DNA of 64,000 nucleotides from an uncultured Alphaproteobacteria bacterium (GTDB taxonomy: Bacteria; Pseudomonadota; Alphaproteobacteria; RF32; CAG-239). Position 1 is the stretch's first letter. Each line of letters starts with the position of its first letter. The DNA lies in the NCBI GenBank assembly GCA_944392205.1, contig CALXVV010000012.1, forward strand, positions 403 through 64,402, given 5' to 3'. The notes below the pieces were generated by a model. That model was given only the letters and a program-made list of their open reading frames with translations, had not been told where the DNA came from and searched no databases. Positions 22,882-51,325 of this stretch are shown piece after piece. Both the position numbers and the translations under genes were made by a program.

Positions 22882-24375
22882 ATGGAGATTTCAGAACTGC
22901 ATTTGCAAAAAATGCGTTATCCGAATAATGATTTTGACAGCTATTTTATCACGGCACAAGAAGTGGCTGAGGTTTTGGCTGTGGGGAAAATTCCGCATAT
23001 TACTTTGCCGCAAAGCTCAAACGGCCCAACCGTTGCGGTTTTGATGGCGGTTGAAAAACACCCGGACCGCGAAGAGCCTGACTACTATGTGCCTGAATTT
23101 TATGTAGAGGCTATCACGCAAAATGGCGGAAACCCCGTTTTTATCGGTTTTGATAAAACAGCAGAACAACTGCAACAAACCATGCCGCAGGCCATATTAT
23201 TGGTGGGTGGGGATTTTGCCTTTCCGCCCGCTTGGTTGGAAGAAGGCATCCAAGCCCATGGCGGAAATCTGCGCCGAGAAAAAGCCTATGAGACCATGAT
23301 AACTTATGCCAAAGAGCACAAACTGCCGCTTTTGGGTATTTGCGCCGGAGAGCAGGTTTTGGCCGGAACTTTGGGGGCAAAACTTTGCATGGTCAAAGGG
23401 CACCGTGCCTCCTTGGATGATGATGCCCACCTGATTAACATTGTTCCCCACACTCTGCTCGCCAAATTGTGCGGGCTAAAAATGGCTAAAGTCAACTCTA
23501 ACCACCACATGGCTGTATCTGCTAAAACAAGCGGAGATTTTGTTGTCTCGGCCACGGCAGAAGACGGCACCATTGAGGCTATTGAGCCTAAAGACCCGTG
23601 GCATTATTTTGTTTTGGGCGTGCAATGGCACCCCGAGCGCATGGTAAAAAAAGAAGATTTTCTCACGGATAGAATCTTCAATGGTTTCATGAAAGCGGCT
23701 CGCGGCGGCTTTGTGCATAATCATGAGGCCATCCCCTTTTCTCAGGCGCCGATGGTTGAGATTGACGACCCGCATTTTATTGTTGATATGATGTATGCCA
23801 AACCCCAAAACCTCTCCGGACAGCCGGTTTATGAGCTTTGCGGAATCGGCAACCATGCCTATGTGCGGATTGAATTGTGGGAGGCCCTAAAAAAGCTTAT
23901 TCCCTGGCTTGAGGAACATCAGCTCAAGCTCAAAATATGCGATGCCTTCCGCCCGATGAGTGCGCATATGGCGCTCAAAGAGGCAATCCACGAGAAAGGG
24001 CCCGGAATTTTTGCCAGCCTTGCGCAAACATCTAAACACTGCCACGGAACCGCAGTTGATGTCTTGCTCACCGATATGAACGGCAACGAGCTTGCCTACC
24101 CCACAAAAGTTGACTGCTACCGTCCTGATTTGGCAGCCAAAATCCAAAAAGGCGACACAAAAGATTTTTATGAATACACCAAATGCGGCCGGCATGACTA
24201 TTTTGCTCCCAACCTGGAAAAAGAAATTGCCAACCGCGAACAGCTTAAAAATCTTATGGAAAGTGTCGGCCTCATCTCTTGGGTGGGCGAATGGTGGCAC
24301 TATGAACTGCCCGACGAGTTTAACCTTGTTTACCCACCGGTCGAGCGCCGGCCAGGCAAGCGCCTGGAGGCATAA
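22882..24375 (+). CDS. Two-domain enzyme: N-terminal class-I glutamine amidotransferase-like peptidase C26 (gamma-glutamyl hydrolase type) fused to a C-terminal D-alanyl-D-alanine dipeptidase (VanX/DdpX, peptidase M15D)
   Basis: N-terminal domain: LPLLGICAGEQV (nucleophile Cys elbow) and VLGVQWHPE (His/Glu). C-terminal domain: ICDAFRP, SKHCHGTAVD (SxHxxGxAxD zinc motif) and EWWHYE. The last ~13 codons and the stop codon lie inside a repeat element. Confidence 0.85.
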   Translation: MEISELHLQKMRYPNNDFDSYFITAQEVAEVLAVGKIPHITLPQSSNGPTVAVLMAVEKHPDREEPDYYVPEFYVEAITQNGGNPVFIGFDKTAEQLQQTMPQAILLVGGDFAFPPAWLEEGIQAHGGNLRREKAYETMITYAKEHKLPLLGICAGEQVLAGTLGAKLCMVKGHRASLDDDAHLINIVPHTLLAKLCGLKMAKVNSNHHMAVSAKTSGDFVVSATAEDGTIEAIEPKDPWHYFVLGVQWHPERMVKKEDFLTDRIFNGFMKAARGGFVHNHEAIPFSQAPMVEIDDPHFIVDMMYAKPQNLSGQPVYELCGIGNHAYVRIELWEALKKLIPWLEEHQLKLKICDAFRPMSAHMALKEAIHEKGPGIFASLAQTSKHCHGTAVDVLLTDMNGNELAYPTKVDCYRPDLAAKIQKGDTKDFYEYTKCGRHDYFAPNLEKEIANREQLKNLMESVGLISWVGEWWHYELPDEFNLVYPPVERRPGKRLEA

Positions 24376-24500
24376 CTTAGCTGGTGCGAACGCGCACTTC
24401 GACCAGGCAAGCGCCTGGAGGCATAATCAAGCTGTAAACCGCAAGGCTAAAAAGCCTCTTCATCTGAAGAGGCTTTTTACGGCTTGCTGGCGCCAGTGCC
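24338..24500. repeat. Mosaic palindromic repeat cluster (REP/RPE-like), copy A
   Basis: Units present: CCGGTCGAGCGCCGG, CCAGGCAAGCGCCTGG (twice), GTGCGAACGCGCAC, ..TAA(C/T)..AGCTG(T/G).., then the hairpin AAAAAGCCTCTTCATCTGAAGAGGCTTTTT and CGGCTTGCTGGCGCCAGTGCC. Homologous clusters lie at 28686-28879, 39283-39412 and 41175-41422. Confidence 0.85.
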
Positions 24501-24517
24501 TTGACCAAATAAATTAA

Positions 24518-24545
24518 TTGCATTTTAATTTTTCTGCTCTAATAT
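24518..24545 (+). promoter_or_regulatory. Predicted sigma70-type promoter of leader RNA copy A
   Basis: TTGCAT, 16-nt spacer, TAATAT. It is part of a 42-nt block (24514-24555) that is identical at 28912-28953 and 41455-41496. Confidence 0.6.
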
Positions 24546-24551
24546 CATTTC

Positions 24552-24874
24552 CGCAAGGGCGAGTTGCCCCTGCGGAGTGTAGAAGCTCCTCTCAAGAAAA
24601 AGAACAACTCCTTTATGGGGAGCTGGGGATATAAGTATGCTTGCATGACGAATAAGGCAGACTGTCACGGTACAGTTTCGTCTTGCTGCGTAGGTTTCGC
24701 GCTTTGCGCTCAACAACTCCGCTTCGGTCACTTGTTTTCTAATTTCGTTTCGCTTGCTCACACTTCACTCACTCAATCAAGAAAACTTACGCCTCTTGTG
24801 GTAAAATCAACCGGAGCAGCGGTTGATTTTATCCTCGAGCTCCCCGCCTTGATTTTTCAAGGAGGTTTCTTTTT
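24552..24874 (+). ncRNA. Structured leader RNA, copy A (long variant with a ~150-nt insert), ending in an intrinsic terminator
   Basis: Shares the P1 hairpin (GCAAGGGC-GAGUU-GCCCCUGC), the GGAG..CUCC hairpin and the conserved blocks AACUCCU..UGGGGAGC, AUAUAAG, GACGAAUAA and AGACUGU with copies B and C. The terminator CCGCCUUGA-UUUU-UCAAGGAGG plus U-tract is at 24844-24874. The 5' end is only predicted from the promoter. Confidence 0.6.
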
Positions 24875-24899
24875 AATAAGAAATTTAGGAGTTGAAACG

Positions 24900-25139
24900 A
24901 TGAATAATAAAAAACAAGCTATCAGAGAACTTATTCAAAATCACGGCACTATTGCTCAGCAACTTCACCAACTGAGAGTGTCTAAACAATTATCTTTAGA
25001 GAAACTTTCTCATGACACCAGAATTCCTCTCTACATTTTGGACGATATGGAAATTGGCTCTCACCCCTTGCAGCTTTCCAATCTCTATATCTTAGCCAAA
25101 TACTACGGCAAAAAAATTCATATCCAACTGATAGATTAA
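24900..25139 (+). CDS. XRE-family helix-turn-helix protein (79 aa)
   Basis: AGGAG lies 8 nt upstream of the ATG at 24900. The sequence QLRVSKQLSLEKLSHDTRIPLYILDDMEIG fits the Cro/C1-type HTH pattern. The track's 191-aa version reads through the leader RNA, so I rejected it. Confidence 0.7.
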   Translation: MNNKKQAIRELIQNHGTIAQQLHQLRVSKQLSLEKLSHDTRIPLYILDDMEIGSHPLQLSNLYILAKYYGKKIHIQLID

Positions 25140-25143
25140 AAAA

Positions 25144-25171
25144 GTAGCCCACCGGTTAAACTGGTGGGCTA
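25144..25171. terminator. Bidirectional terminator between the HTH gene and secB
   Basis: TAGCCCACCGG-TTAAA-CTGGTGGGCTA hairpin. Confidence 0.75.
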
Positions 25172-25175
25172 TTCC

Positions 25176-25634
25176 TTATTGTTTTTCAGCTTTGGCAGCT
25201 TGATGCTTGGCGTTGTACATTGCCACAAAATCTATCGGGTTGAGCATCAAGGGCGGCAGGCCTCCGTTAAACAAGACATTGGTTATGGCCTGGCGAGCAT
25301 AGGGGAACAAAAGATGCGGAACCTCCACCATCAGCACCGGCTCTTTGTGCTCTTGCGGTACATTTAATGAAACCAAACCGCCATAGGTCATCTCCAGAAT
25401 AAAGAACTTTTCTTCCTTGACATCGCCATCTATGCGGAAAGTGAGCTCAACATTGTAAATATTGCCTTCAACCTCTTTGGCATTAATATTGACATCTATC
25501 TTGATTTTGGGCTCGCTGTCTATTTTCTTGAAAATCTCAGGCGCATGCGGAATCTCCAATGACAAGTCTTTGATGTATTGATTAATAATGCCAATGGCCG
25601 GGCCTTGGGGTTTGTTCTCATTTGCGTTTTCCAT
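25176..25634 (-). CDS. secB: Protein-export chaperone SecB
   Basis: 152 aa. Contains IINQYIKDLSLEIP, then FPYARQAITNVLFNGGLPPLMLNPIDF, which is characteristic of SecB. Confidence 0.9.
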   Translation of the reverse strand: MENANENKPQGPAIGIINQYIKDLSLEIPHAPEIFKKIDSEPKIKIDVNINAKEVEGNIYNVELTFRIDGDVKEEKFFILEMTYGGLVSLNVPQEHKEPVLMVEVPHLLFPYARQAITNVLFNGGLPPLMLNPIDFVAMYNAKHQAAKAEKQ

Positions 25635-25773
25635 AGAAACCTTCTCCTTATTTTTTGATATCTTTATTGCTTCTAGTTTTACACTCTAAAATTCCAGAGG
25701 TCAATAATAACAGTTGATAATAGTTACAAATACGTTATATTGAGAAAGATATGTAATGAGGACGTAAAAAAAG

Positions 25774-26451
25774 ATGATGACACATTTGGATATTTTGGTT
25801 TTGTTGGTTGTTGTGGTGTTGATTTTCCAACGCTTGCGCAGTGTGCTCGGAACTCGCCCCAATAATATAGAGGAAAAGAAAATCCGCCTCTCTAAGGAAA
25901 ATGCCGAGAAATTATACAATATCTTAAAAGACGAGGCCGACAAAATGCAAGCCGCCGAGGAAAAAAGTAAAGACTCCGCCGCCGAGCTGGTGCCTGAGGG
26001 TGAGCCTTTGAGCGAGCTTGACAAGACCTTGATGGAAATTCCAAACTTTAATAAAGCAAAATTCTTAAAAAGTGCCGAAAACGCCTTCCAAATCATTACC
26101 GAAGCCTTTAACAAAGGTGATGCGGAAACCTTGGAAATGCTCGTTAACAAAAAACTCTTTAAGAAATTTCAAGAAGTTATTGAAGATCGCAAGCAAAATA
26201 ATCTCTCTGCCGAAACTGATTTTATCGGCTTTGATAAGGTGGAAATCACCAAGGCCAAAATCTCTGCCGATAAGGTGGCCGAAATTACGGTCGAATTTGT
26301 CAGCGAGCAGGTTAACATTCTGCGTGATGCACAGGGCACCGTGATTGAGGGTGATGAAAACTATATCCAAAATATCACCGATGTCTGGACTTTTGAAAGA
26401 GCTATATCTTCAACCTCGCCTAACTGGCTTTTGATTTCTACTAAAAAATAA
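25774..26451 (+). CDS. Tim44-like domain protein
   Basis: N-terminal transmembrane helix and a C-terminal Tim44-like fold (FLKSAENAFQIITEAFNKGD...VWTFER...NWLL). The location next to secB is the conserved alphaproteobacterial arrangement. Confidence 0.8.
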   Translation: MMTHLDILVLLVVVVLIFQRLRSVLGTRPNNIEEKKIRLSKENAEKLYNILKDEADKMQAAEEKSKDSAAELVPEGEPLSELDKTLMEIPNFNKAKFLKSAENAFQIITEAFNKGDAETLEMLVNKKLFKKFQEVIEDRKQNNLSAETDFIGFDKVEITKAKISADKVAEITVEFVSEQVNILRDAQGTVIEGDENYIQNITDVWTFERAISSTSPNWLLISTKK

Positions 26452-27620
26452 TGAAGCAGCGCTATTTTAACATTTTTCTTGCCCTAATGCTCCTTGCCTC
26501 TTGCGGAAAGGAAGAAACGCCCCCCGCGCAAACGGAGCCTGAAGAAAAGCCCAAACTCCAACTGGTGGAAAAAACTTTTGACCAACTACCGGGATGGCAA
26601 GAAGATGATGTCTCTTTGGCCAGAGATGCCTTTTTGCAAAGCTGCCAGGCTCTTGCCAAGACAAAATCCCCCTTTATCGGCAAGGGTGAAATTAAAATTT
26701 CTGCCAACACCTACAAGCAGATTTGCAATGAGGCCAAACTCACCCCACAGCAACATTTTCGCCAATTTATCCTTGAGCATTTTACCCCATATCTGGTAAC
26801 TTATGAGGGCTCCGATGAGGGAAAATTCACCGCCTACTATGAGCCGCTTATTCATGTTTCGCACAATAAAGATGATAAATACAAATATCCTATCCACGCC
26901 AGGCCTCTTGACCTGATTGAATTTAACCCCCATGACTTTGACCCGCAAATGCCCTCAAAACGCCTGGTGGGCAGAGTAGACGGCCAAAAGCTGGTACCAT
27001 ATTATTCCAGAGAAGAAATTTTGCAAGGCAAAGGCAATGCGCCTGTTTTGCTCTGGTCTGACAGCTTTGTTGATGTCTTTATTATGCACATTCAGGGGCC
27101 AGCTGTGGCAGAACTCCCGGACAAAAGCAGAATCAGAATATCTTATGCCGACACAAACGGGCTGAAATTTCAGGGAATCGGTTCAATTTTGCTCAAGCAC
27201 GGAGAGCTCAAAAGCGGCGGCGCCTCTACGGACAAGGTCAAAAAATGGCTCATTGATAATCCCGACAAAGCCCGTGCTTATATGAATGAGAATCCGCGCT
27301 ATGTTTTCCACCGTTTGATTGGCGCCTCCGGTCCGGTCGGAGCGCTTGGCGTGCCGATTGCAGCCGGAAGATCTTTGGCGGTTGACCCGCAATTTATTCC
27401 GTTGGGGGCCTTGATGTGGCTTGATACTGTTGCCCCAAACGGAGAAAAAATCCAAAAGCTGGTTAATGCCCAAGATGTCGGCCGGGCTATCAAAGGAGCT
27501 ATTCGCGGAGATTATTATTGGGGCAGCGGCGGTGATGATATCTTGGCTCTGGCCGGCAAAATGAATGCCAAAGGGAGTTACTATATTTTGCTGCCTAAAG
27601 AAGAGAGGAATAATCCATGA
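26451..27620 (+). CDS. mltA: Murein transglycosylase A (lytic transglycosylase, lipoprotein)
   Basis: Lipobox LLASCG. Also present: TAYYEP, the RIS.AD.NG. region (RISYADTNGLKFQGIG), RSLAVDPQFIPLGA and AQDVGRAIKGAIRGDYYWG. Confidence 0.9.
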   Translation: MKQRYFNIFLALMLLASCGKEETPPAQTEPEEKPKLQLVEKTFDQLPGWQEDDVSLARDAFLQSCQALAKTKSPFIGKGEIKISANTYKQICNEAKLTPQQHFRQFILEHFTPYLVTYEGSDEGKFTAYYEPLIHVSHNKDDKYKYPIHARPLDLIEFNPHDFDPQMPSKRLVGRVDGQKLVPYYSREEILQGKGNAPVLLWSDSFVDVFIMHIQGPAVAELPDKSRIRISYADTNGLKFQGIGSILLKHGELKSGGASTDKVKKWLIDNPDKARAYMNENPRYVFHRLIGASGPVGALGVPIAAGRSLAVDPQFIPLGALMWLDTVAPNGEKIQKLVNAQDVGRAIKGAIRGDYYWGSGGDDILALAGKMNAKGSYYILLPKEERNNP

Positions 27621-28180
27621 CCAAAAAAATCTATAACCGGGCCGATGAGCTGGTTTTTCATGCCCTAAAAAAGGCTTTTGCCGAAAATAAAATTCATCTC
27701 TGCCTGGTGGAGAGCAAAATCAACCGTCCATCCTCTCCTGTTTATAACCCATGGGAGGTTTTGCTCCCAATTTTGGTGCCTGTTGTCTTGGGGCTTATTC
27801 TGATTTTGGCCGTTGGTCCGATATTTGGTCTCTTCTTTATGGTGGCCATGATTATGGTTTCTTCCAACTTGGTCAAGAAAAAGCTTGAGCAAAAACTTTT
27901 TGAGCGCACCAAGGAGCTCTTGCTCTCAGACTATGATAATTTTTGCAAGCTATGGGATTTTGGCGGCATTGTTCTGGTTAATGCCGAAAATAAAAAACTC
28001 GGGTGTATTGCCCCTGACGGCGATTGGAAGGAATTTGTCATCAAAAACTATGCTGATTTGATGATTGAGAAAAAAGAGGAAACTCCACCCCCTCCGCCGC
28101 AAGAGGAAAAACCGGTAGAACCCAAAACCAAAGAGGCCAAAAATGAAACGCCTGGATCAAGACGTCGCCCCCGTCGATGA
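27617..28180 (+). CDS. Hypothetical membrane protein with a Pro/Lys/Glu-rich tail
   Basis: 187 aa with two adjacent transmembrane helices and an ATGA overlap with mltA. Confidence 0.6.
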   Translation: MTKKIYNRADELVFHALKKAFAENKIHLCLVESKINRPSSPVYNPWEVLLPILVPVVLGLILILAVGPIFGLFFMVAMIMVSSNLVKKKLEQKLFERTKELLLSDYDNFCKLWDFGGIVLVNAENKKLGCIAPDGDWKEFVIKNYADLMIEKKEETPPPPPQEEKPVEPKTKEAKNETPGSRRRPRR

Positions 28181-28733
28181 AGACGGCGCTTGGCAGGAGG
28201 CAATTAAAGGCATTAAGAAAATTCCGCAAAAAGAGGAAAAGCCACAGCCTCCGCTGATTGTTGGCAAAATCTCGCCAAAGCTCAATTATGCAGAGGTTTA
28301 TTCCGGCGCGCCGTTGCAGCCGCTTGCGCTTGGCAACACTGATAATATCGACCGCCGCACGGCAGAAAAATTTAAGCGCGGCGAGTTTGCCATTGAGCGG
28401 CGTTTGGACTTGCACGGCATGACTGAAAAAGAGGCTTTTGCCGCAGTCGATGAGTTTGTCCGCAAGGCTTATATGCAAAAATGCCGCTGTTTGCTGATTG
28501 TCACCGGCAAAGGTCTCAACCGTGAGGATGATGCCTGGTATGAGAAAAAAGGCATCCTCAAAGATTGTGTGCCCAATTGGCTCAACGGCCCGGAGCTAAG
28601 GCCACTTATCTTGAGTATTTGCTATGCCCAACCCGAAGACGGCGGCACCGGCGCCATCTATGTTCTTCTCCGCTCTAGGCGGACGCCGGTCAAGCGACCG
28701 GAGGCAGTGCGAACGCGCACCTCGATAACTTAG
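28143..28733 (+). CDS. Smr domain protein
   Basis: Smr motif LDLHGMTEKEA...LLIVTGKG...L...V..WL. The final ~17 codons (RTPVKRPEAVRTRTSIT) and the stop codon are encoded by the repeat cluster. Confidence 0.8.
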   Translation: MKRLDQDVAPVDEDGAWQEAIKGIKKIPQKEEKPQPPLIVGKISPKLNYAEVYSGAPLQPLALGNTDNIDRRTAEKFKRGEFAIERRLDLHGMTEKEAFAAVDEFVRKAYMQKCRCLLIVTGKGLNREDDAWYEKKGILKDCVPNWLNGPELRPLILSICYAQPEDGGTGAIYVLLRSRRTPVKRPEAVRTRTSIT

Positions 28734-28879
28734 CTGTAACTCGCCCGGCTCCCTTTGGTCGGCGCGCTAATCGGCAGTGCCCAGGCAACGGCCTGGAGCG
28801 ATTACCAAGCTGTAACCCGCGAGACTAAAAAGCCGCTCCTCACAACGCGGCTTTTTACGCCTTGCTGATTTTGGGTGCC
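28686..28879. repeat. Mosaic palindromic repeat cluster, copy B
   Basis: CCGGTCAAGCGACCGG, GTGCGAACGCGCAC, ACTTAGCTGTAACTCGC, CCAGGCAACGGCCTGG, CAAGCTGTAACCCGC, then the hairpin AAAAAGCCGCTCCTCACAACGCGGCTTTTT. Confidence 0.85.
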
Positions 28880-28915
28880 ATAATCAAATAATCTTTGCCT
28901 TTCTAAACAATTTAA

Positions 28916-28943
28916 TTGCATTTTAATTTTTCTGCTCTAATAT
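28916..28943 (+). promoter_or_regulatory. Predicted sigma70-type promoter of leader RNA copy B
   Basis: TTGCAT, 16-nt spacer, TAATAT, within the identical 42-nt block. Confidence 0.6.
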
Positions 28944-28949
28944 CATTTC

Positions 28950-29122
28950 CGCAGACGCGAGTTGCGTCTGTGGAGTATCGAAACTCCTTTACAGCGAAAT
29001 AACTCCTCTTTTGGGGAGCCGGGGATATAAGCGTACTTGTATTGGTATGACGAATAACCCGGACTGTGCTGTAACAGTTTCGAACTCCCCACCTTGATTT
29101 TTAATCAAGGTGGTTTTGTTTT
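28950..29122 (+). ncRNA. Structured leader RNA, copy B (~173 nt), ending in an intrinsic terminator
   Basis: P1 is 28951-28958/28964-28971. The long-range helix is 28990-28995/29068-29073. CCGGG (29019-29023) pairs with CCCGG (29058-29062). The terminator CCACCUUGAU/AUCAAGGUGG plus UUUUGUUUU is at 29089-29122. Helices covary with copies A and C. Confidence 0.65.
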
Positions 29123-29143
29123 AACAAAACCGGAGTGAGAAAA

Positions 29144-29365
29144 ATGACTGAAACTCAAACTTTTTACAATGACATTCCCTCTAACACCGACCTCACTCAC
29201 AAAAGACTACGCTACCTGATTTGCCAACTTTATCACTTAGAAGGACAATGGGAAAATTTGCCCCTCAAAACCCAGCACAAACTCTGGCGCGCCCTACAAA
29301 CTAAAACTCTGCAAAACATCTTGAGTGATATGCCTGATTTTTCTCATCCCTTCATCTTGCCCTAA
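29144..29365 (+). CDS. Small conserved protein (73 aa), paralog of 41679..41897, unknown function
   Basis: GGAG RBS 9 nt upstream. Codon-by-codon comparison with the paralog shows 11 third-position synonymous differences and no amino-acid change over 71 codons. Confidence 0.85.
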   Translation: MTETQTFYNDIPSNTDLTHKRLRYLICQLYHLEGQWENLPLKTQHKLWRALQTKTLQNILSDMPDFSHPFILP

Positions 29366-29374
29366 CCACTAGGC

Positions 29375-29407
29375 AAAGCCCCGCTTGTTTTTTTCAAGCG
29401 GGGCTTT
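29375..29407. terminator. Bidirectional terminator between the small ORF and the ABC exporter gene
   Basis: AAAGCCCCGCTTG-TTTTTTT-CAAGCGGGGCTTT. Confidence 0.85.
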
Positions 29408-29420
29408 TGATTGCTGCCTA

Positions 29421-31202
29421 TTACTTATTGTTTTTGAACTGGGCGTTATAAAGAGAGCGGTAGGCGCCGTTTTCTTTTTGCAGTAGTTTTTCGTGGCTGC
29501 CTTGCTCGATAATCTCTCCGTCGTTAATCACCACTATCTCATCAGCATTCTGAATGGTTGATAAGCGGTGCGCTATCACAAATACTGTTCTGTCTTGCAT
29601 CAGGTTATCTATGGCTTTTTGCACCACGGCCTCTGATTTGTTATCCAAAGCCGAGGTGGCCTCGTCCAAAATAACTATCGGCGCATTCTTAACAAAAGCT
29701 CTGGCAATGGCCAACCTCTGCCGCTGGCCGCCGGAGAGCAAACTGCCGCGCTCGCCGATATCCGTATCTAAGCCGTTTTCCTGCTCGTTTACAAACTCTT
29801 TGAGATATGCCATCTCCAGGGCTTTGTTTATCTCCGCCTCGCTGGCATCGGGCTTGCCCATGAGAATATTATCGCGAATAGTGCCGGAGAACAAAAAGTT
29901 GTCTTGGAACACAACCGCTATATTATTTCGCAAGCTCTCCAAAGTGAAATCTCTGATATCTTTGCCGTCTATCTCTATTTTGCCGGAGCAAACATCGTAA
30001 AAACGCGGCAACAGACTCACAACCGTGGATTTTCCGCCGCCGGAGTTGCCGACTATTGCCGTGGTGGTGCCGGCCTTTACACGCAAGTTTATGTGCTTTA
30101 GCACCGGGGTCTCCGGATTATAGGCAAAGCAGACATCTTCAAATCTAATCTCTCGCCCTATCCTTTTGAGCTCCGTTGCTTGTGGCGCATTGGTTATCTT
30201 GGGCTTGATGTTTAAGATATCGGCTATTCTCTCTATGGCCAAAAATGAAACCTGAACCGCACTGAAGTTCTTGCCGATATTTTTTATCGGATTATACAGC
30301 ATAATCAATGCCGTGATGAATGATACAAAGTTACCCGAAGTTATTTCTCCGTTGACAATCAAATAACTACCATAGCCAATCACACCGCCGATACCTATTG
30401 AGGCAACAACGTGCAGCATTGGAGTCATCCAAGCCGTGCGCTGAACCATTTTGATTGAGAGCTTGAACAACTTGGTGATGACTGAATCATATTTCTCATA
30501 GGCTTGTTTTTGCAAATTATACGAGGCTATTGTCTTATTGCCGTGGTAGGTTTCGTTATAATTGGTTAAAATCGTGGAATTTTCCTGCACGGTTTTATAG
30601 ATAATCCCCTTAATCATTCGGCGCAGACGAGCCAAGGGCATCAAAGCGCAGACCAAAACCAAAATCGCAATAATGGATAACTGCCAAGAATTATATATCA
30701 AAACCCCTATCAATGACAGAGAAGAAAACACTCTTGAGACAAACAAGCGAATATTGTCTATCAGCCCCGTGCAGGCTGTGTCGACATCTGCCGAAAAACG
30801 CTGAATGATATGCCCGGAATCGTGCTTGTCATAAAAAGCCGGCTCCAAAAACAAAAGCTTCTTAAACAAGGCTCTTTTGACATCAGTGGTGATCTTGCCG
30901 CCCACCCACGCATTCAAGTATGTGGCGGCATAGTTAAAGCCTCCCTGCACCAGAGTAAATGCCACAATCAGCAACGGAATATAGGCCGGCGAATGCGCAC
31001 TCTTGTCGACCAAAACAACATCCATATAGGGTTTGAGTGCCAAAGCAACAACAGCGTCCAAAGCGCCAATCGGGATACACAACGCAATCGCCAAAAATGC
31101 CCTAAACATATAGGGTTTTACAAACGGCCACATAATCTTGTAGTGGTCCATAAACGGCAGTTTGGGAGATTCTTTTATCTTTTTCTCTTTTTGATTTGAC
31201 AT
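29421..31202 (-). CDS. ABC transporter permease/ATP-binding protein (MsbA/exporter type)
   Basis: Six-helix N-terminal transmembrane domain. Walker A GNSGGGKST, signature LSGGQRQR, Walker B ILDEATSALD. Confidence 0.9.
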   Translation of the reverse strand: MSNQKEKKIKESPKLPFMDHYKIMWPFVKPYMFRAFLAIALCIPIGALDAVVALALKPYMDVVLVDKSAHSPAYIPLLIVAFTLVQGGFNYAATYLNAWVGGKITTDVKRALFKKLLFLEPAFYDKHDSGHIIQRFSADVDTACTGLIDNIRLFVSRVFSSLSLIGVLIYNSWQLSIIAILVLVCALMPLARLRRMIKGIIYKTVQENSTILTNYNETYHGNKTIASYNLQKQAYEKYDSVITKLFKLSIKMVQRTAWMTPMLHVVASIGIGGVIGYGSYLIVNGEITSGNFVSFITALIMLYNPIKNIGKNFSAVQVSFLAIERIADILNIKPKITNAPQATELKRIGREIRFEDVCFAYNPETPVLKHINLRVKAGTTTAIVGNSGGGKSTVVSLLPRFYDVCSGKIEIDGKDIRDFTLESLRNNIAVVFQDNFLFSGTIRDNILMGKPDASEAEINKALEMAYLKEFVNEQENGLDTDIGERGSLLSGGQRQRLAIARAFVKNAPIVILDEATSALDNKSEAVVQKAIDNLMQDRTVFVIAHRLSTIQNADEIVVINDGEIIEQGSHEKLLQKENGAYRSLYNAQFKNNK

Positions 31203-48449: not shown

Positions 48450-49448
48450 ATGGATAAAGATTTGAGCTTTGCAGAAGATTTGGAACTGAAATTAGACGGC
48501 AAACGCCCGATTAGGCGTGAAAACCCTAAAAAAGGACAAAGTCGGTGGTATTATGTTGACCCTCGTGAAAGAGATGAGGATTTTACACTCTTATCGCAGA
48601 TGAAAACCATAGATGTACCAAGCCCCAACACGCCTAATCCGGCTCTGCAACAGGTGATGTTTGAAGATGCTGAAAACAATCCTGATAAATATTATATTTG
48701 GCGCACCGTTGGCGATGACAAAGTCAGAGATTCTCATGCCGAGCGTGAAGGCTGTATTTTTAGTTGGGATGATGCTCCGGAAGGCGGGCATCCGGGAGAA
48801 GACTACAACTGCCGCTGTATTGCCGAACCCTACGTTCCCAGAAAAGACTCTTCTGAATCCGATGAACAATGGCGGCAACGCTTGCTTACAACGATGAAAG
48901 AATACTTACTTGAAGAAGAAGACTTGAAAAATCATATTTATTTAGACACCAAGGGATTTAAGACTGTTGGAGCCGGAAAAAATATTGATAAATGGGGAGA
49001 TTTTAAGAAAATTAATTGGGAGGTTGACGGCAGACCGGCAACAGAAGAAGAAAAATTGGCAGGATTTGAGCGTTATGAGGAATTAAAACAACAAAAATTC
49101 TTCGGACCAAATGTTACCTCTGATTTTTTTGAAGACAAAAGCAATCTCCGTATCAGCGAAAAAGAGGCAGAGCACCTTTTGGAGCAACATATTAAAAATG
49201 ATTTGAATAAATTGGAAACATATGTTTCCGGATTTAGAGACTTTCCGTTTGGGCTACAACAAGTTTTGCTTGATATTCGCTACAATACAGGGAATGCCGA
49301 CAGAAGAAATTGGCCAAATTTATATGAGGCTATTGATAAACGAGATATCCGCGGTATGGCCAACAATGTTAATCGAAAAGATGTTGGAGAGAGCAGAAAT
49401 CAATGGGCAAAAGAGACTATTCTTTCAATTAGAAATTGGGGATATTAA
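48450..49448 (+). CDS. Fusion protein: phage Mu-F/SPP1-gp7-like core motif plus a T4-type (GH24-like) lysozyme domain
   Basis: A strong GGAGG RBS lies before the ATG at 48450. The MuF core is WRTVGDDKVRDSHAEREGCIF...DYNCRCI. The lysozyme N-lobe EEEDLKNHIYLDTKGFKTVGAG has Glu, Asp and Thr spaced exactly as E11/D20/T26 of T4 lysozyme ([20 protein letters not shown]). The later LLDIRYNTG and NQWAKE resemble the T4L C-lobe. Confidence 0.8.
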   Translation: MDKDLSFAEDLELKLDGKRPIRRENPKKGQSRWYYVDPRERDEDFTLLSQMKTIDVPSPNTPNPALQQVMFEDAENNPDKYYIWRTVGDDKVRDSHAEREGCIFSWDDAPEGGHPGEDYNCRCIAEPYVPRKDSSESDEQWRQRLLTTMKEYLLEEEDLKNHIYLDTKGFKTVGAGKNIDKWGDFKKINWEVDGRPATEEEKLAGFERYEELKQQKFFGPNVTSDFFEDKSNLRISEKEAEHLLEQHIKNDLNKLETYVSGFRDFPFGLQQVLLDIRYNTGNADRRNWPNLYEAIDKRDIRGMANNVNRKDVGESRNQWAKETILSIRNWGY

Positions 49449-49840
49449 TCCTTTGGGATGAAAAACCAGGAAATTCCGTTAATTTGCCCGTTGGTGTTGG
49501 CAGTATATTCTTTAACCCTCCATTTTGCATAGCTGCAGCGGTCTTTGCAGGGAAATATTTGATAGGTATAAATATACGTTACGTCTCTGTTGCTCAGTGG
49601 ATTGAAAAACGTGCACTTGAGCGAGACTTTTTCCAAGGCGTTTTCTAACAGCTCACATTCCTCTATTTGCTCATATCCATCATTGGAAATACGGACCCGG
49701 GTCGGAGAAAGTTGAGTTGTCCATGCCATTCGTGAAATTGGTTTCAACGTCTCGTTAAATAACGGATTTACAAATTCTTCCGATGAAAATATCCGGCAAG
49801 ATGATACAAACACTACTAAAAACAACAATAACTTTCTCAT
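49445..49840 (-). CDS. Small exported (lipobox-like) protein, paralog 1 of 3
   Basis: MRKLLLFLVVFVSSC signal/lipobox, AAGGAGG RBS, 131 aa. Near-identical to 49909..50304. Confidence 0.75.
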   Translation of the reverse strand: MRKLLLFLVVFVSSCRIFSSEEFVNPLFNETLKPISRMAWTTQLSPTRVRISNDGYEQIEECELLENALEKVSLKCTFFNPLSNRDVTYIYTYQIFPCKDRCSYAKWRVKEYTANTNGQINGISWFFIPKD

Positions 49841-49861
49841 GTGAAACAGACCTCCTTATTA

Positions 49862-49884
49862 GATAGACATCAGGATTTTTTCAT
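49862..49884 (-). pseudogene. 23-nt remnant of the 5' end of a second copy of the 157-aa gene (duplication/deletion scar)
   Basis: 49862-49908 (GATAGACATCAGGATTTTTTCATTATGACATTATCCTTTCTGACAAACTAATC) matches 50816-50863. The latter is the start of gene 50366..50839 plus the spacer to paralog 3. Confidence 0.7.
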
Positions 49885-49908
49885 TATGACATTATCCTTT
49901 CTGACAAA

Positions 49909-50304
49909 CTAATCCTTTGGGATGAAGAACCATGCAATTCCGTTAATTTGCCCGTTGGTGTTGGCAGTATATTCTTTAACTGTCCATTTTGCATAGCTGC
50001 AGCGGTCTTTGCAAGGGAATATTTGATAGGTATAAATATACGTTACGTCTCTGTTACTCAGCGGATTGAAAAATGTGCACTTGAGGGAGACTTTTTCCCA
50101 GGCGTTTTCTAACAGCTCACACTTTTTTATTACCTCATATCCGGCGTTGGAAATACGAACCCGGGTCGGAGAAAGTTGGGTTGTCCATGCCATTCGTGAA
50201 ATTGGTTTCAACGTCTCGTTAAATAACGGATTTACAAATTCTTCCGATGAAAATATCCGGCAAGATGATACAAACACTACTAAAAACAACAATAACCTTC
50301 TCAT
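49909..50304 (-). CDS. Small exported (lipobox-like) protein, paralog 2 of 3
   Basis: 131 aa, with 8 amino-acid differences from paralog 1 and the same RBS and leader. Confidence 0.75.
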   Translation of the reverse strand: MRRLLLFLVVFVSSCRIFSSEEFVNPLFNETLKPISRMAWTTQLSPTRVRISNAGYEVIKKCELLENAWEKVSLKCTFFNPLSNRDVTYIYTYQIFPCKDRCSYAKWTVKEYTANTNGQINGIAWFFIPKD

Positions 50305-50365
50305 GTGAAACAGACCTCCTTATTAGATAGTTTGATTTTAATAATAGGCTTTAAAATTTGGCCGT

Positions 50366-50839
50366 TTAATTTGCAGTTAGTATCTTTTTCGTATAAATTA
50401 ACATTCTCAAAACAGCGTCTCGTACAAGGTTTTCGACTTCTGTCGAACTCAGTCTATCCGCAACTGAACCACAGAATAAATGCTCATTCTCACTATAACA
50501 AGCATTGCTATAATTGTACATTGAGGCATTCCATTCATAAGCCGCAGAAATAAACTTCGAAAAAGCTTTTTTCATTTCTGTTTCTTTTTCCGCATAAAAT
50601 AACTCAAATGTTTCGTTGGCAACTTTTTGATAGCATTTGACTAATTCATTATTAAGCTTTTGTATTTTTCTGTTGTCTTCTTTTTGCTCTGCCACAGCCA
50701 AATTCTGCTTTTGTGCCAGCAAACAGTTATCAACCGCCTTGCCCAACCTCTCAATATCTGAAAGTGATTTATTGGTATCAGCAAGAGAGGCTGACGTTGC
50801 AAAAAGTAAAAATAAGATAGACATCAGGATTTTTTTCAT
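50366..50839 (-). CDS. Secreted helical four-Cys protein (157 aa), unknown function
   Basis: Signal peptide MKKILMSILFLLFATSASLA. It is embedded in the paralog array. There is only a very weak pattern resemblance to DUF1311/LprI-type proteins. Confidence 0.7.
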   Translation of the reverse strand: MKKILMSILFLLFATSASLADTNKSLSDIERLGKAVDNCLLAQKQNLAVAEQKEDNRKIQKLNNELVKCYQKVANETFELFYAEKETEMKKAFSKFISAAYEWNASMYNYSNACYSENEHLFCGSVADRLSSTEVENLVRDAVLRMLIYTKKILTAN

Positions 50840-50863
50840 TATGACATTATCCTTTCTGACAAA

Positions 50864-51265
50864 CTAATCTTCTGAAATAGAGAACCAAGTAATTCCGTTA
50901 ACTTGCCCATCGGTGTTTGCCATATATTCTTTGACTTTCCATTGCGCATAGTTGCAGAAATAACCTTTGCAAGGGAATATTTGATAGGTATAAATATACG
51001 TTACGTCTCTGTTGCTCAGCGGATTGAAAAATGTGCACTTTAGAGAGACTTTTTCCCAGGCGTTTTCTAACAGCTCACACTTTTTTATTACCTCATATCC
51101 GGCGTTGGAAATACGAACCCGGGTCGGAGAAAGTTGGGTCGTCCAGCCAGTTCGTGAAGTTGGTTTCAACGTCTCGTTAAATAACGGATTTACAAATTCT
51201 TCCGATGAAAATATCCGGCAAGATGATACAAACACTACTACTAAAAACATCAATAACCTTCTCAT
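50864..51265 (-). CDS. Small exported (lipobox-like) protein, paralog 3 of 3 (more divergent C-terminus)
   Basis: 133 aa. The N-terminal two thirds are almost identical to paralog 2, and the C-terminal third diverges (CKGYFCNYAQWKVKEYMANTDGQVNGITWFSISED). Confidence 0.75.
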   Translation of the reverse strand: MRRLLMFLVVVFVSSCRIFSSEEFVNPLFNETLKPTSRTGWTTQLSPTRVRISNAGYEVIKKCELLENAWEKVSLKCTFFNPLSNRDVTYIYTYQIFPCKGYFCNYAQWKVKEYMANTDGQVNGITWFSISED

Positions 51266-51325
51266 GCGAAACAGACCTTTTCTGCTATTATGTATTTAAT
51301 GTTTGCTCATCTTGCACTTTTGAGC

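Follow-up and report, generated by a model that had tools for sequence, protein, structure and literature searches.

A putative riboswitch-like leader RNA in front of small XRE regulator genes in gut and rumen Alphaproteobacteria

What is the sequence that stands three times behind one and the same promoter in an uncultured Alphaproteobacteria bacterium? The stretch concerned is 64,000 nt long (assembly GCA_944392205.1, contig CALXVV010000012.1, positions 403 to 64,402 of the forward strand; hereafter the window). An original prediction had described three modules in it, here called copies A, B and C, each with a promoter-like block, a structured leader RNA and an intrinsic terminator directly in front of a small open reading frame (ORF). 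An exact search found the 42-nt block, TTAATTGCATTTTAATTTTTCTGCTCTAATATCATTTCCGCA, where it had been placed, at 24514, 28912 and 41455, always on the + strand and with 0 mismatches. These are its three exact occurrences in the window, and 100 shuffles gave zero matches. Behind it lies an RNA that is previously undescribed and falls into no described family. The reading favoured here, to which we give an even chance, is that it is a new cis-acting, riboswitch-like leader RNA, each copy forming one transcription unit with a folded core and an expression platform.

The original prediction could assign the RNA to no known family, and a comparison with Rfam 15 leads to the same answer. At gathering thresholds the whole window gives 0 matches. 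At E<=10, positions 24300-29500 and 41440-41700 give chance-level matches only, mostly on terminators (e.g., sRNA-Xcc1 at 19.4 bits against a gathering threshold of 53, and L10_leader at 15 against 44), and nothing relevant. A full-text literature search found no description of this RNA. A survey of RNAs in the human microbiome reported that helix-turn-helix (HTH) XRE genes are common near unnamed novel candidate RNAs (PMC8040213).

A family of RNAs with a covarying core

How far does the family extend? A pattern drawn from eight variants (GGGGAG-N8-ATAAG-N5-35-CGAANAA-N6-CTGT-N6-10-CAGT) matches nothing in the window other than copies A, B and C. In contigs representing one genome per species it matches more than 113 loci among the matches listed (a lower bound), in about 38 assemblies, and several assemblies hold at least 5-9 copies among the matches listed. 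The sources among these matches are metagenome-assembled genomes (MAGs) from gut, rumen and caecum labelled Alphaproteobacteria, Proteobacteria, 'Azospirillum sp.' or Candidatus Scatocola, with one Lachnospiraceae exception. This sole listed match without a Proteobacteria label is a 3.3 kb contig (CAYVUJ010000222.1, L022) with a typical RNA and XRE unit, and its Lachnospiraceae label is probably a binning error. Strain-level contigs with the same housekeeping genes carry different RNA variants at the same sites. A covariance model built from 62 diverse copies gave 119 matches in 100 fetched loci and 24 more in 20 further loci. Run over the window with filters off, it found no copy beyond A, B and C, which score 69.5 + 31.4, 169.5 and 143.9 bits, respectively.

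All three copies fold more stably than shuffled sequence. Copy B (28947-29122) reaches -78.9 kcal/mol, with z = -9.3 against shuffles, and the corresponding z values are -5.3 for copy C and -4.0 for copy A. On comparative evidence, the core (the first ~135 nt) is shown to consist of the P1 hairpin, a hairpin-loop pseudoknot, P3, and a three-way junction with GGGGAG and an 8x8 internal loop. Its elements in copy B are as follows.

28951..28971, + strand: P1, an 8-bp 5'-terminal hairpin with loop GAGUU
28972..28987, + strand: P2 hairpin GGAGU/ACUCC, whose loop UCGAAAC (28978-28984) pairs with GUUUCGA (29077-29083) in a pseudoknot
28990..28995, + strand: 5' strand of P3, UACAGC, which pairs with GCUGUA (29068-29073)
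29003..29018, + strand: P4 hairpin, with CUCCUC, loop UUUU and GGGGAG (29013-29018)
29019..29062, + strand: P5, CCGGG/CCCGG (29019-29023 with 29058-29062), which encloses the 8x8 internal loop and the variable hairpin P6 (29032-29049)
29064..29077, + strand: invariant CUGU and ACAG flanking the 3' strand of P3, paired with each other by RNAalifold

The claim of a structured RNA with covarying helices has been corroborated in an alignment of 119 sequences, which was fitted to the covariance model and leans towards the modelled structure. Standard pairs occupy 93.7% of its cells, as opposed to 69.1% after shuffling, and 46 of the 52 pairs show double-sided changes. The covariation score is 0.576 against 0.18 for shuffled alignments (0 of 500 reach it), and it is at most 0.084 when the partners are slid by 1-3 columns. 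All eight pairs of P1 are doubly changed (95.9% of cells paired), as are all six of the helix between the P2 loop and its 3' partner (98.8%) and every pair of P5 (98.6%) and P6 (97.1%). The RNA thus has the conserved, structured, covarying domain expected of a riboswitch. That the structure operates at the level of RNA is indicated by many G-U pairs and by model matches confined to one strand.

The energies of strand pairs taken without any alignment agree with the model-fitted alignment. Cognate P3 strands pair at -7.3 kcal/mol and non-cognate ones at -3.4 kcal/mol, with 57 of 73 copies beyond the 5th percentile of the non-cognate pairs. For the helix formed by the P2 loop, the values are -5.1 (cognate) and -2.8 kcal/mol (non-cognate). 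P3 itself had been proposed earlier as a long-range helix, from UACAGC/GCUGUA in copy B and CAUAGAUG/CAUCUAUG in copy C, and it stands: the strands are hypervariable yet complementary throughout the family. For P1, compensation between copies B and A had been proposed. The two double substitutions are there, but copy A also has one A.C mismatch.

Not every part of the earlier fold fared as well. It included a nested outer helix between GGAGU and the distal ACUCC, the pairing that minimum-energy folding of a single sequence gives. This helix is perfect in just 50 of 116 copies, at its middle position 56 copies have A-U and another 56 have no pair, and there is no compensation for it across the family. 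Instead, it is the local P2 stem that is compensated. It pairs perfectly in 98 of 116 copies, and both strands change together from GGAGU:RCUCC to GGUGU:ACAUC. Therefore, P2 is a real hairpin whose loop pairs downstream, which makes the arrangement a pseudoknot. Likewise, the block AUAACUCCUCUUUUGGGGAGC, which had been taken as conserved and unpaired, is mostly the hairpin P4 (CUCC/GGAG).

About 35 invariant nucleotides are found in the junctions and the 8x8 internal loop, alongside six covarying helices plus the pseudoknot. GGGGAG is invariant in sets of 62 and 66 diverse copies, and P4 varies only by one-sided C/U changes on its 5' strand. The two sides of the conserved internal loop are GAUAUAAG (29024-29031) and ACGAAUAA (29050-29057), and AUAAG and CGAA.AA are invariant in diverse family copies. 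CUGU and ACAG could form a second hairpin that presents the 3' strand of P3 in its loop. This stem is beyond the reach of covariation because its variation is just one-sided (U-A in 42 copies, U-G in 24).

Promoter, terminator and ribosome-binding site

The core is framed by signals for transcription and translation, which in copy B are the following.

28912..28953, + strand: promoter block, with -35 TTGCAT (28916-28921), a 16-nt spacer and -10 TAATAT (28938-28943); the first P1 base is 28951
29083..29090, + strand: anti-Shine-Dalgarno (anti-SD) element AACUCCCC, predicted to pair with GGAGU (29132-29136) and also complementary to GGGGAG
29089..29122, + strand: intrinsic-terminator-like hairpin of 11 bp followed by UUUUGUUUU, from a consensus scan
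29113..29130, + strand: U-tract/A-tract hairpin GUUUUG/CAAAAC, from covariation and present in folds
29132..29365, + strand: SD sequence GGAG (29132-29135) and a 73-aa orphan ORF (ATG 29144, stop 29363-29365)

The two promoter boxes and their spacing are those of the original prediction. Counted from the first P1 base, positions -35 to -30 hold a TTGCAA-like box and positions -13 to -8 a TAATAT-like box in 116 distinct copies, with a modal gap of 7 nt between the -10 box and P1. A simple sigma-70 consensus scan did not flag the promoter of copy B, because TTGCAT agrees with TTGACA at just 3/6 positions. Support for the promoter therefore comes from the fixed box positions in the family, instead of the consensus scan. 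Since these positions are fixed before P1, the RNA most likely starts there, from a sigma-70-type promoter with its start at or within 1-2 nt of P1. The -35 box sits inside a palindrome, TTAATT-GCA-AATTAA, in the window (28912-28930) and in the family promoters. In addition, there are two 42-nt promoter alleles, each occurring in three or more species-level MAGs with 0-3 mismatches, and the RNAs behind them diverge. These are hints that the palindrome and the conserved alleles may be an operator for a shared DNA-binding regulator.

Downstream of the core the order of elements is the same throughout the family: ARCUCC(CC), a covarying hairpin of 9-11 bp, a U-tract broken by a single G or C, an A-tract with the matching C or G, and then GGAG(U/C)U and a start codon. 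The GC hairpin and U-tract that had been predicted at the end of the RNA were recovered by the scan in copy B, where the hairpin (29089-29113) is followed by TTTTGTTTT and the U-tract spans 29114-29122. Copy B thus has the GC-rich hairpin directly before a U-tract that characterises an intrinsic terminator. Across the family, 94% of cells in the terminator helix are paired, all 10 modelled pairs are doubly changed, and a T-run is present in 118 of 119 copies. The interruption of the U-tract also follows that of the A-tract, with G facing C in 39 copies, C facing G in 14 and discordance in 2.

What would happen in a transcript that continues past the terminator? In the minimum-energy folds of the read-through RNAs of A, B and C, ARCUCC pairs with GGAGU. 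The resulting stem is predicted to close a three-way junction whose other two arms are the terminator and U/A hairpins. Where the nucleotide just before CUCC faces the one just after GGAG, 74 of 84 distinct copies have a compatible combination (A-U 44, G-U 20, G-C 10, mismatch 10), and A is never opposite C, though C follows GGAG in 10 copies. AAAACAAAA-GGAGUU is retained even in several units whose U/A hairpin carries an insertion in its loop.

The predicted SD:anti-SD stem is short (5-6 bp). Could it belong to a simpler device, namely a ligand-free 5' untranslated region (UTR), constitutive or physically triggered, that stabilises the transcript, masks the ribosome-binding site (RBS) and opens with temperature, in the manner of an RNA thermometer, or with transcription/translation kinetics? 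The short stem would fit, as would P1 as a 5'-terminal hairpin and a gene context without a ligand clue. However, ~35 invariant nucleotides, a pseudoknot and six covarying helices exceed its needs, which makes this explanation unlikely.

Downstream genes and proposed mode of action

The position of the RNA relative to genes is one clue to its function. In copy B, GGAG and ATG follow so closely behind the terminator that, as originally claimed, there is no space for a second promoter. Of the distinct units, 110 could be evaluated. In 86 of these an ORF of 45 aa or more begins no further than 60 nt from the U-tract, in every case on the strand of the RNA. In six units another promoter and RNA come next, and the remaining 18 are other cases, many of them insertions. 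The 86 ORFs make a leader- or attenuator-like layout reasonable and, together with the fixed promoter boxes, they point to the 5' UTR location that a riboswitch would have.

The ORFs of copies B and C are not the typical downstream gene. The family norm is a small XRE regulator, encoded 3' of about 80% of copies. It is usually a 72-95-aa XRE/Cro-CI-type HTH protein with a conserved C-terminal tail, Y-x-K-K-I-x-I-x-L-x-D. The XRE family matches Pfam HTH_31, HTH_25 and HTH_3, and its best solved relatives are DdrOC, HipB, HigA and C-proteins. A minority of units encode the orphan 72-73-aa protein (B and C), pilin-like proteins, LRR/YD secreted proteins or larger XRE proteins. The 73-aa orphan has no Pfam, PHROG or PADLOC match and just 3 close clusters among 5.8 billion clusters. 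That it might be a diverged XRE protein was considered and rejected (hhalign probability of 0.2% against the XRE family profile). Operons beyond the small gene were likewise dismissed; most modules are monocistronic, stop at their own terminator and face a convergent gene. A leader-peptide attenuator was also rejected because the one short frame, which in copy B opens at an AUG in P6 and runs for 16 codons, is not conserved, being shifted or absent in C and other copies.

A leader of the kind favoured here would work as follows. Transcription would begin from the promoter at P1 and the core would fold first. Most transcripts would then stop at the hairpin and U-tract. In read-through mRNA, ARCUCC, which abuts the pseudoknot strand, would pair with GGAG, so that by default the downstream gene would not be translated. 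A trigger that acts on the invariant core would free the RBS and might also increase read-through, possibly by a move of GGGGAG from the local CUCC to the 3' CUCCCC. Candidates for the trigger are a small ligand or a common RNA-binding protein. A common trigger would be likelier than feedback by the product because the RNA precedes unrelated proteins (XRE, orphan, pilin-like and LRR/YD secreted).

The original prediction of a riboswitch- or attenuator-like layout is upheld as far as leader position and structure go. A competing antiterminator was not found, and SD masking is favoured instead. GGGGAG and CUCCCC are complementary, as had been pointed out, but as an antiterminator this pairing would remove just 2 of ~11 terminator pairs. 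The better-supported regulatory feature appears, from the modelled folds and in part from covariation, to be that ARCUCC masks the SD when transcripts read through.

Several observations weigh against a riboswitch-like leader. No antiterminator competing with the terminator stem was found. GGGGAG, CUCCCC and GGAG are invariant, which places an exchange between them out of covariation's reach. The match between the bases flanking the SD and anti-SD is suggestive of masking but is confounded by phylogeny. The downstream genes point to no single pathway or ligand and offer no metabolic clue. Finally, the six units followed by another promoter and RNA, with no ORF, fit a free-standing RNA gene.

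What if the RNA is indeed a stand-alone non-coding RNA gene? In this scenario the core would bind a protein or act in trans (e.g., through its CUCC tracts on RBSs), and the small gene would be merely co-located or expressed by incidental read-through. In ORF-less tandem arrays, two or three units follow one another, and each of them has a promoter, a terminator and a GGAGUU element of its own. They show that the RNA can exist as a stand-alone unit. The arrays concerned are listed here.

L038, 3160-3537, - strand: ORF-less tandem
L103, 4533-4914: ORF-less tandem
L037, 1932-2295: ORF-less tandem
L046, 541-968: ORF-less tandem
L125, 1-751: ORF-less tandem

The strong terminator in nearly all copies also fits, as does an elaborate fold that recalls protein-binding or orphan structured RNAs. 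However, the RNA is tightly coupled to ORFs on the same strand with no intervening promoter, and the SD is integrated into a covarying junction. The CUCC tracts, which form one side of P2, of P4 and of the stem that closes on the SD, are mostly paired within the RNA. Moreover, the upstream units of some tandems are degenerate (e.g., L018 and L068, ~60 bits). This alternative is therefore doubtful, although it deserves serious weight. The two modes of action are also compatible, because terminated leaders can act as small RNAs (sRNAs) too.

Another question is whether the XRE protein regulates its own leader, by binding the RNA or the palindrome at the -35 box. Nearly every XRE family member in the fetched loci has the RNA upstream, an association that is biased in that these loci were chosen for the RNA, and the position of the -35 box within TTAATT-GCA-AATTAA would suit such a role. 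However, the same RNA and an identical promoter precede non-HTH proteins (B, C, pilin-like and secreted) and also stand before no ORF at all, and XRE domains are DNA binders. Autoregulation is accordingly quite improbable.

If the favoured riboswitch-like leader is accepted, it may be asked what it senses. One possibility, put forward tentatively and on the whole doubtful, is that the RNA is a riboswitch or protein-signal sensor of one global cue (e.g., a second messenger) that gates a bank of XRE paralogues and some pilin-like and surface-protein genes. The bank would number at least 5-9 copies in each incomplete MAG, and a genome would probably hold tens. In the model that goes with it, the fold would be a pseudo-symmetric double loop-strand pseudoknot without known relative.

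Comparison with known systems, and the surrounding window

Which known RNAs does this one resemble? There is a likeness in layout to c-di-GMP-I (GEMM) and other multi-copy riboswitches with terminator platforms, which share a structured 5' leader, many copies per genome, diverse genes including regulators, pilin-like and surface proteins, and a terminator hairpin after the folded core. The P1 loops here are often GNRA-like (GAGA, GUGA), and the conserved internal loop is a candidate for their receptor, which could extend the likeness to GEMM-type RNAs. In contrast to these, the present RNA matches no Rfam riboswitch, has no competing antiterminator that was found, and mostly precedes tiny XRE regulators of one family. 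Orphan structured RNAs such as the raiA motif also combine a complex conserved fold with their own promoter and terminator upstream of a particular gene class, and like the present RNA they may act in cis or in trans. However, their sequence and fold are unrelated, and the RBS built into the 3' junction and the high copy number set the present RNA apart.

Like the immunity RNAs c4 of phage P1 and CI of phage P4, this is an RNA embedded in a leader, with tracts complementary to the downstream ribosome-binding region. Those, however, are processed antisense phage RNAs, whereas the present family is chromosomal and has no match in 2.9 million viral contigs, and the Rfam c4 model gives no match on it. 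C-rich sRNAs (the alphaproteobacterial cuckoo/CcsR RNAs, LhrC of Listeria, and RoxS/RsaE) share several copies, sometimes in tandem, with their own promoter and terminator and CUCC-type anti-SD tracts. Theirs are C-rich loops on simple folds, whereas the tracts here lie in the stems of a pseudoknotted, junction-rich fold. Membership in this group was rejected, since the tracts are not exposed in hairpin loops and there is no Rfam match on the RNA itself. The lone match to a C-rich sRNA, RsaE at 25.4 bits against a gathering threshold of 79, falls at 29301-29408, that is, on the 3' end of the ORF and its terminator. ROSE-type thermometers of Alphaproteobacteria are multi-hairpin 5' UTRs, several per genome, whose last element masks the SD. 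Unlike the present RNA, they precede small heat-shock genes and have no terminator, pseudoknot or large invariant junctions.

The RNA would work like a riboswitch- or attenuator-type leader with transcriptional and translational elements. It is unusual in its high copy number, in its near-exclusive pairing with diversifying tiny XRE regulators and in its loop-strand pseudoknot. Also unusual are the U-tract/A-tract hairpin, through which the SD becomes part of a junction, and the ORF-less tandem arrays. If this is correct, it is a new, abundant and very well supported RNA class in poorly known gut and rumen bacteria. Because it stands ahead of a large, fast-diversifying XRE family, one RNA-level input could then control many regulators. 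More than 130 natural variants are at hand for structure work, and the family offers a test case for pseudoknotted three-way-junction folds and a target for ligand or protein fishing. The ORF-less tandems are a natural experiment on leaders as free RNAs.

An origin in phages or plasmids was considered and rejected. A pattern search of 2.9 million viral contigs (IMG/VR) gave 0 matches, BLAST against plasmids gave 0 matches, and PHROGs yielded none for the proteins of the modules. The one match in GenBank phage records is L125 (MT835910.1, 'UNVERIFIED: Bacteriophage sp.'), a faecal scaffold with a DNA polymerase clamp-loader-like gene, other non-structural genes and a triple RNA array at its end. 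Its chromosomal-type genes make it look like a fragment of a bacterial chromosome. A phage or defence-island element was also discounted; PADLOC gave one sub-threshold, generic HTH_VI match (E=0.0013) to the XRE protein.

The window itself is a chromosomal stretch with housekeeping genes, including those for SecB, a Tim44-like protein, MltA, Smr, TGT, an ATP-binding cassette exporter and a response regulator. A repeat of ~120 nt with repetitive extragenic palindrome (REP)-like hairpins and a bidirectional terminator (direct-repeat families D2, D5 and D6) occurs in it four times.

24410-24528: repeat copy
28788-28906, + strand: repeat copy 5' of copy B
39289-39407: repeat copy
41332-41450: repeat copy

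One copy of the repeat stands upstream of each RNA copy A, B and C. The copy at 39289-39407 stands without an RNA module and is followed by unrelated sequence, and the repeat is therefore separate from the RNA unit. Might the whole unit nevertheless be a remnant of a repeat or mobile element, with its structure serving functions at the DNA level and without RNA function? Its units are multi-copy and strain-variable at the same site, adjoin the REP-like repeat and lie mostly between convergent genes. On the other hand, the G-U pairs and strand-specific matches argue for RNA, a conserved promoter and terminator frame the element, and terminal repeats, a transposase and matches in viral contigs or plasmids are all lacking. 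This explanation is highly improbable.

Beyond copy B, the two remaining modules of the window are as follows.

41455..41897, + strand: copy C, with promoter 41455-41496, RNA 41492-41656, SD 41666-41669 and a 72-aa ORF 41679-41897; model score 143.9 bits
24514..25139, + strand: copy A, decayed or chimeric, with promoter 24514-24555, RNA 24551-24875, insert 24682-24842, SD 24888-24891 and an XRE gene 24900-25139

The ORF of copy C is 95% identical to that of copy B at the DNA level. Copy A encodes a 79-aa XRE HTH protein with an HTH_25 match. Still present in this copy are the promoter, the hairpins P1, P2 and P4, the invariant loops, the terminator and the SD platform. The strands of its P3 (5' UCUCAAGA, 3' CACGGUA) do not match, its P5 is half broken, with 5' CUGGG opposite 3' GGCAG, and the copy as a whole has many non-standard pairs. 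The change from CCGGG/CCCGG to CUG/CAG had been read as compensation; the CUG/CAG is a remnant of this half-broken P5. The 5' half of copy A resembles CUGGG/CCCAG variants and the 3' half CUGCC/GGCAG variants, which makes it look recombinant. Copy A appears to be a decayed chimera and is a poor witness for the helices.

In copy A an insert of ~160 nt (24682-24842) takes the place of part of the pseudoknot strand. At 78-99% identity this insert is found only within RNA units of other genomes (L077 5090-5250, L029 1-122 and L049 3573-3838), always between the pseudoknot strand and the anti-SD. L006 has it beside intact P3 and P5, which suggests that the RNA tolerates its presence. The insert may represent an additional, optional domain or else a small element with this site as its target.

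Some further differences between strains involve the flanking repeats. Contig L002 is without window positions 39284-41417, which hold two genes between two copies of the REP-like repeat, and contig L007 has two extra genes after Smr with a flanking duplication of ~90 nt. This suggests repeat-mediated gain and loss of gene cassettes between strains. The strain-variable block between the repeat copies includes a gene (39609-40379) for a 256-aa protein that matches the Pfam serum amyloid A domain (E = 5.6e-14). Elsewhere in the window, 49446-51278 contains three direct repeats of ~300 nt, two of which are 92% and 67% identical to the reference copy, and a conserved 42-nt block comes after every one of the three (D1, D7).

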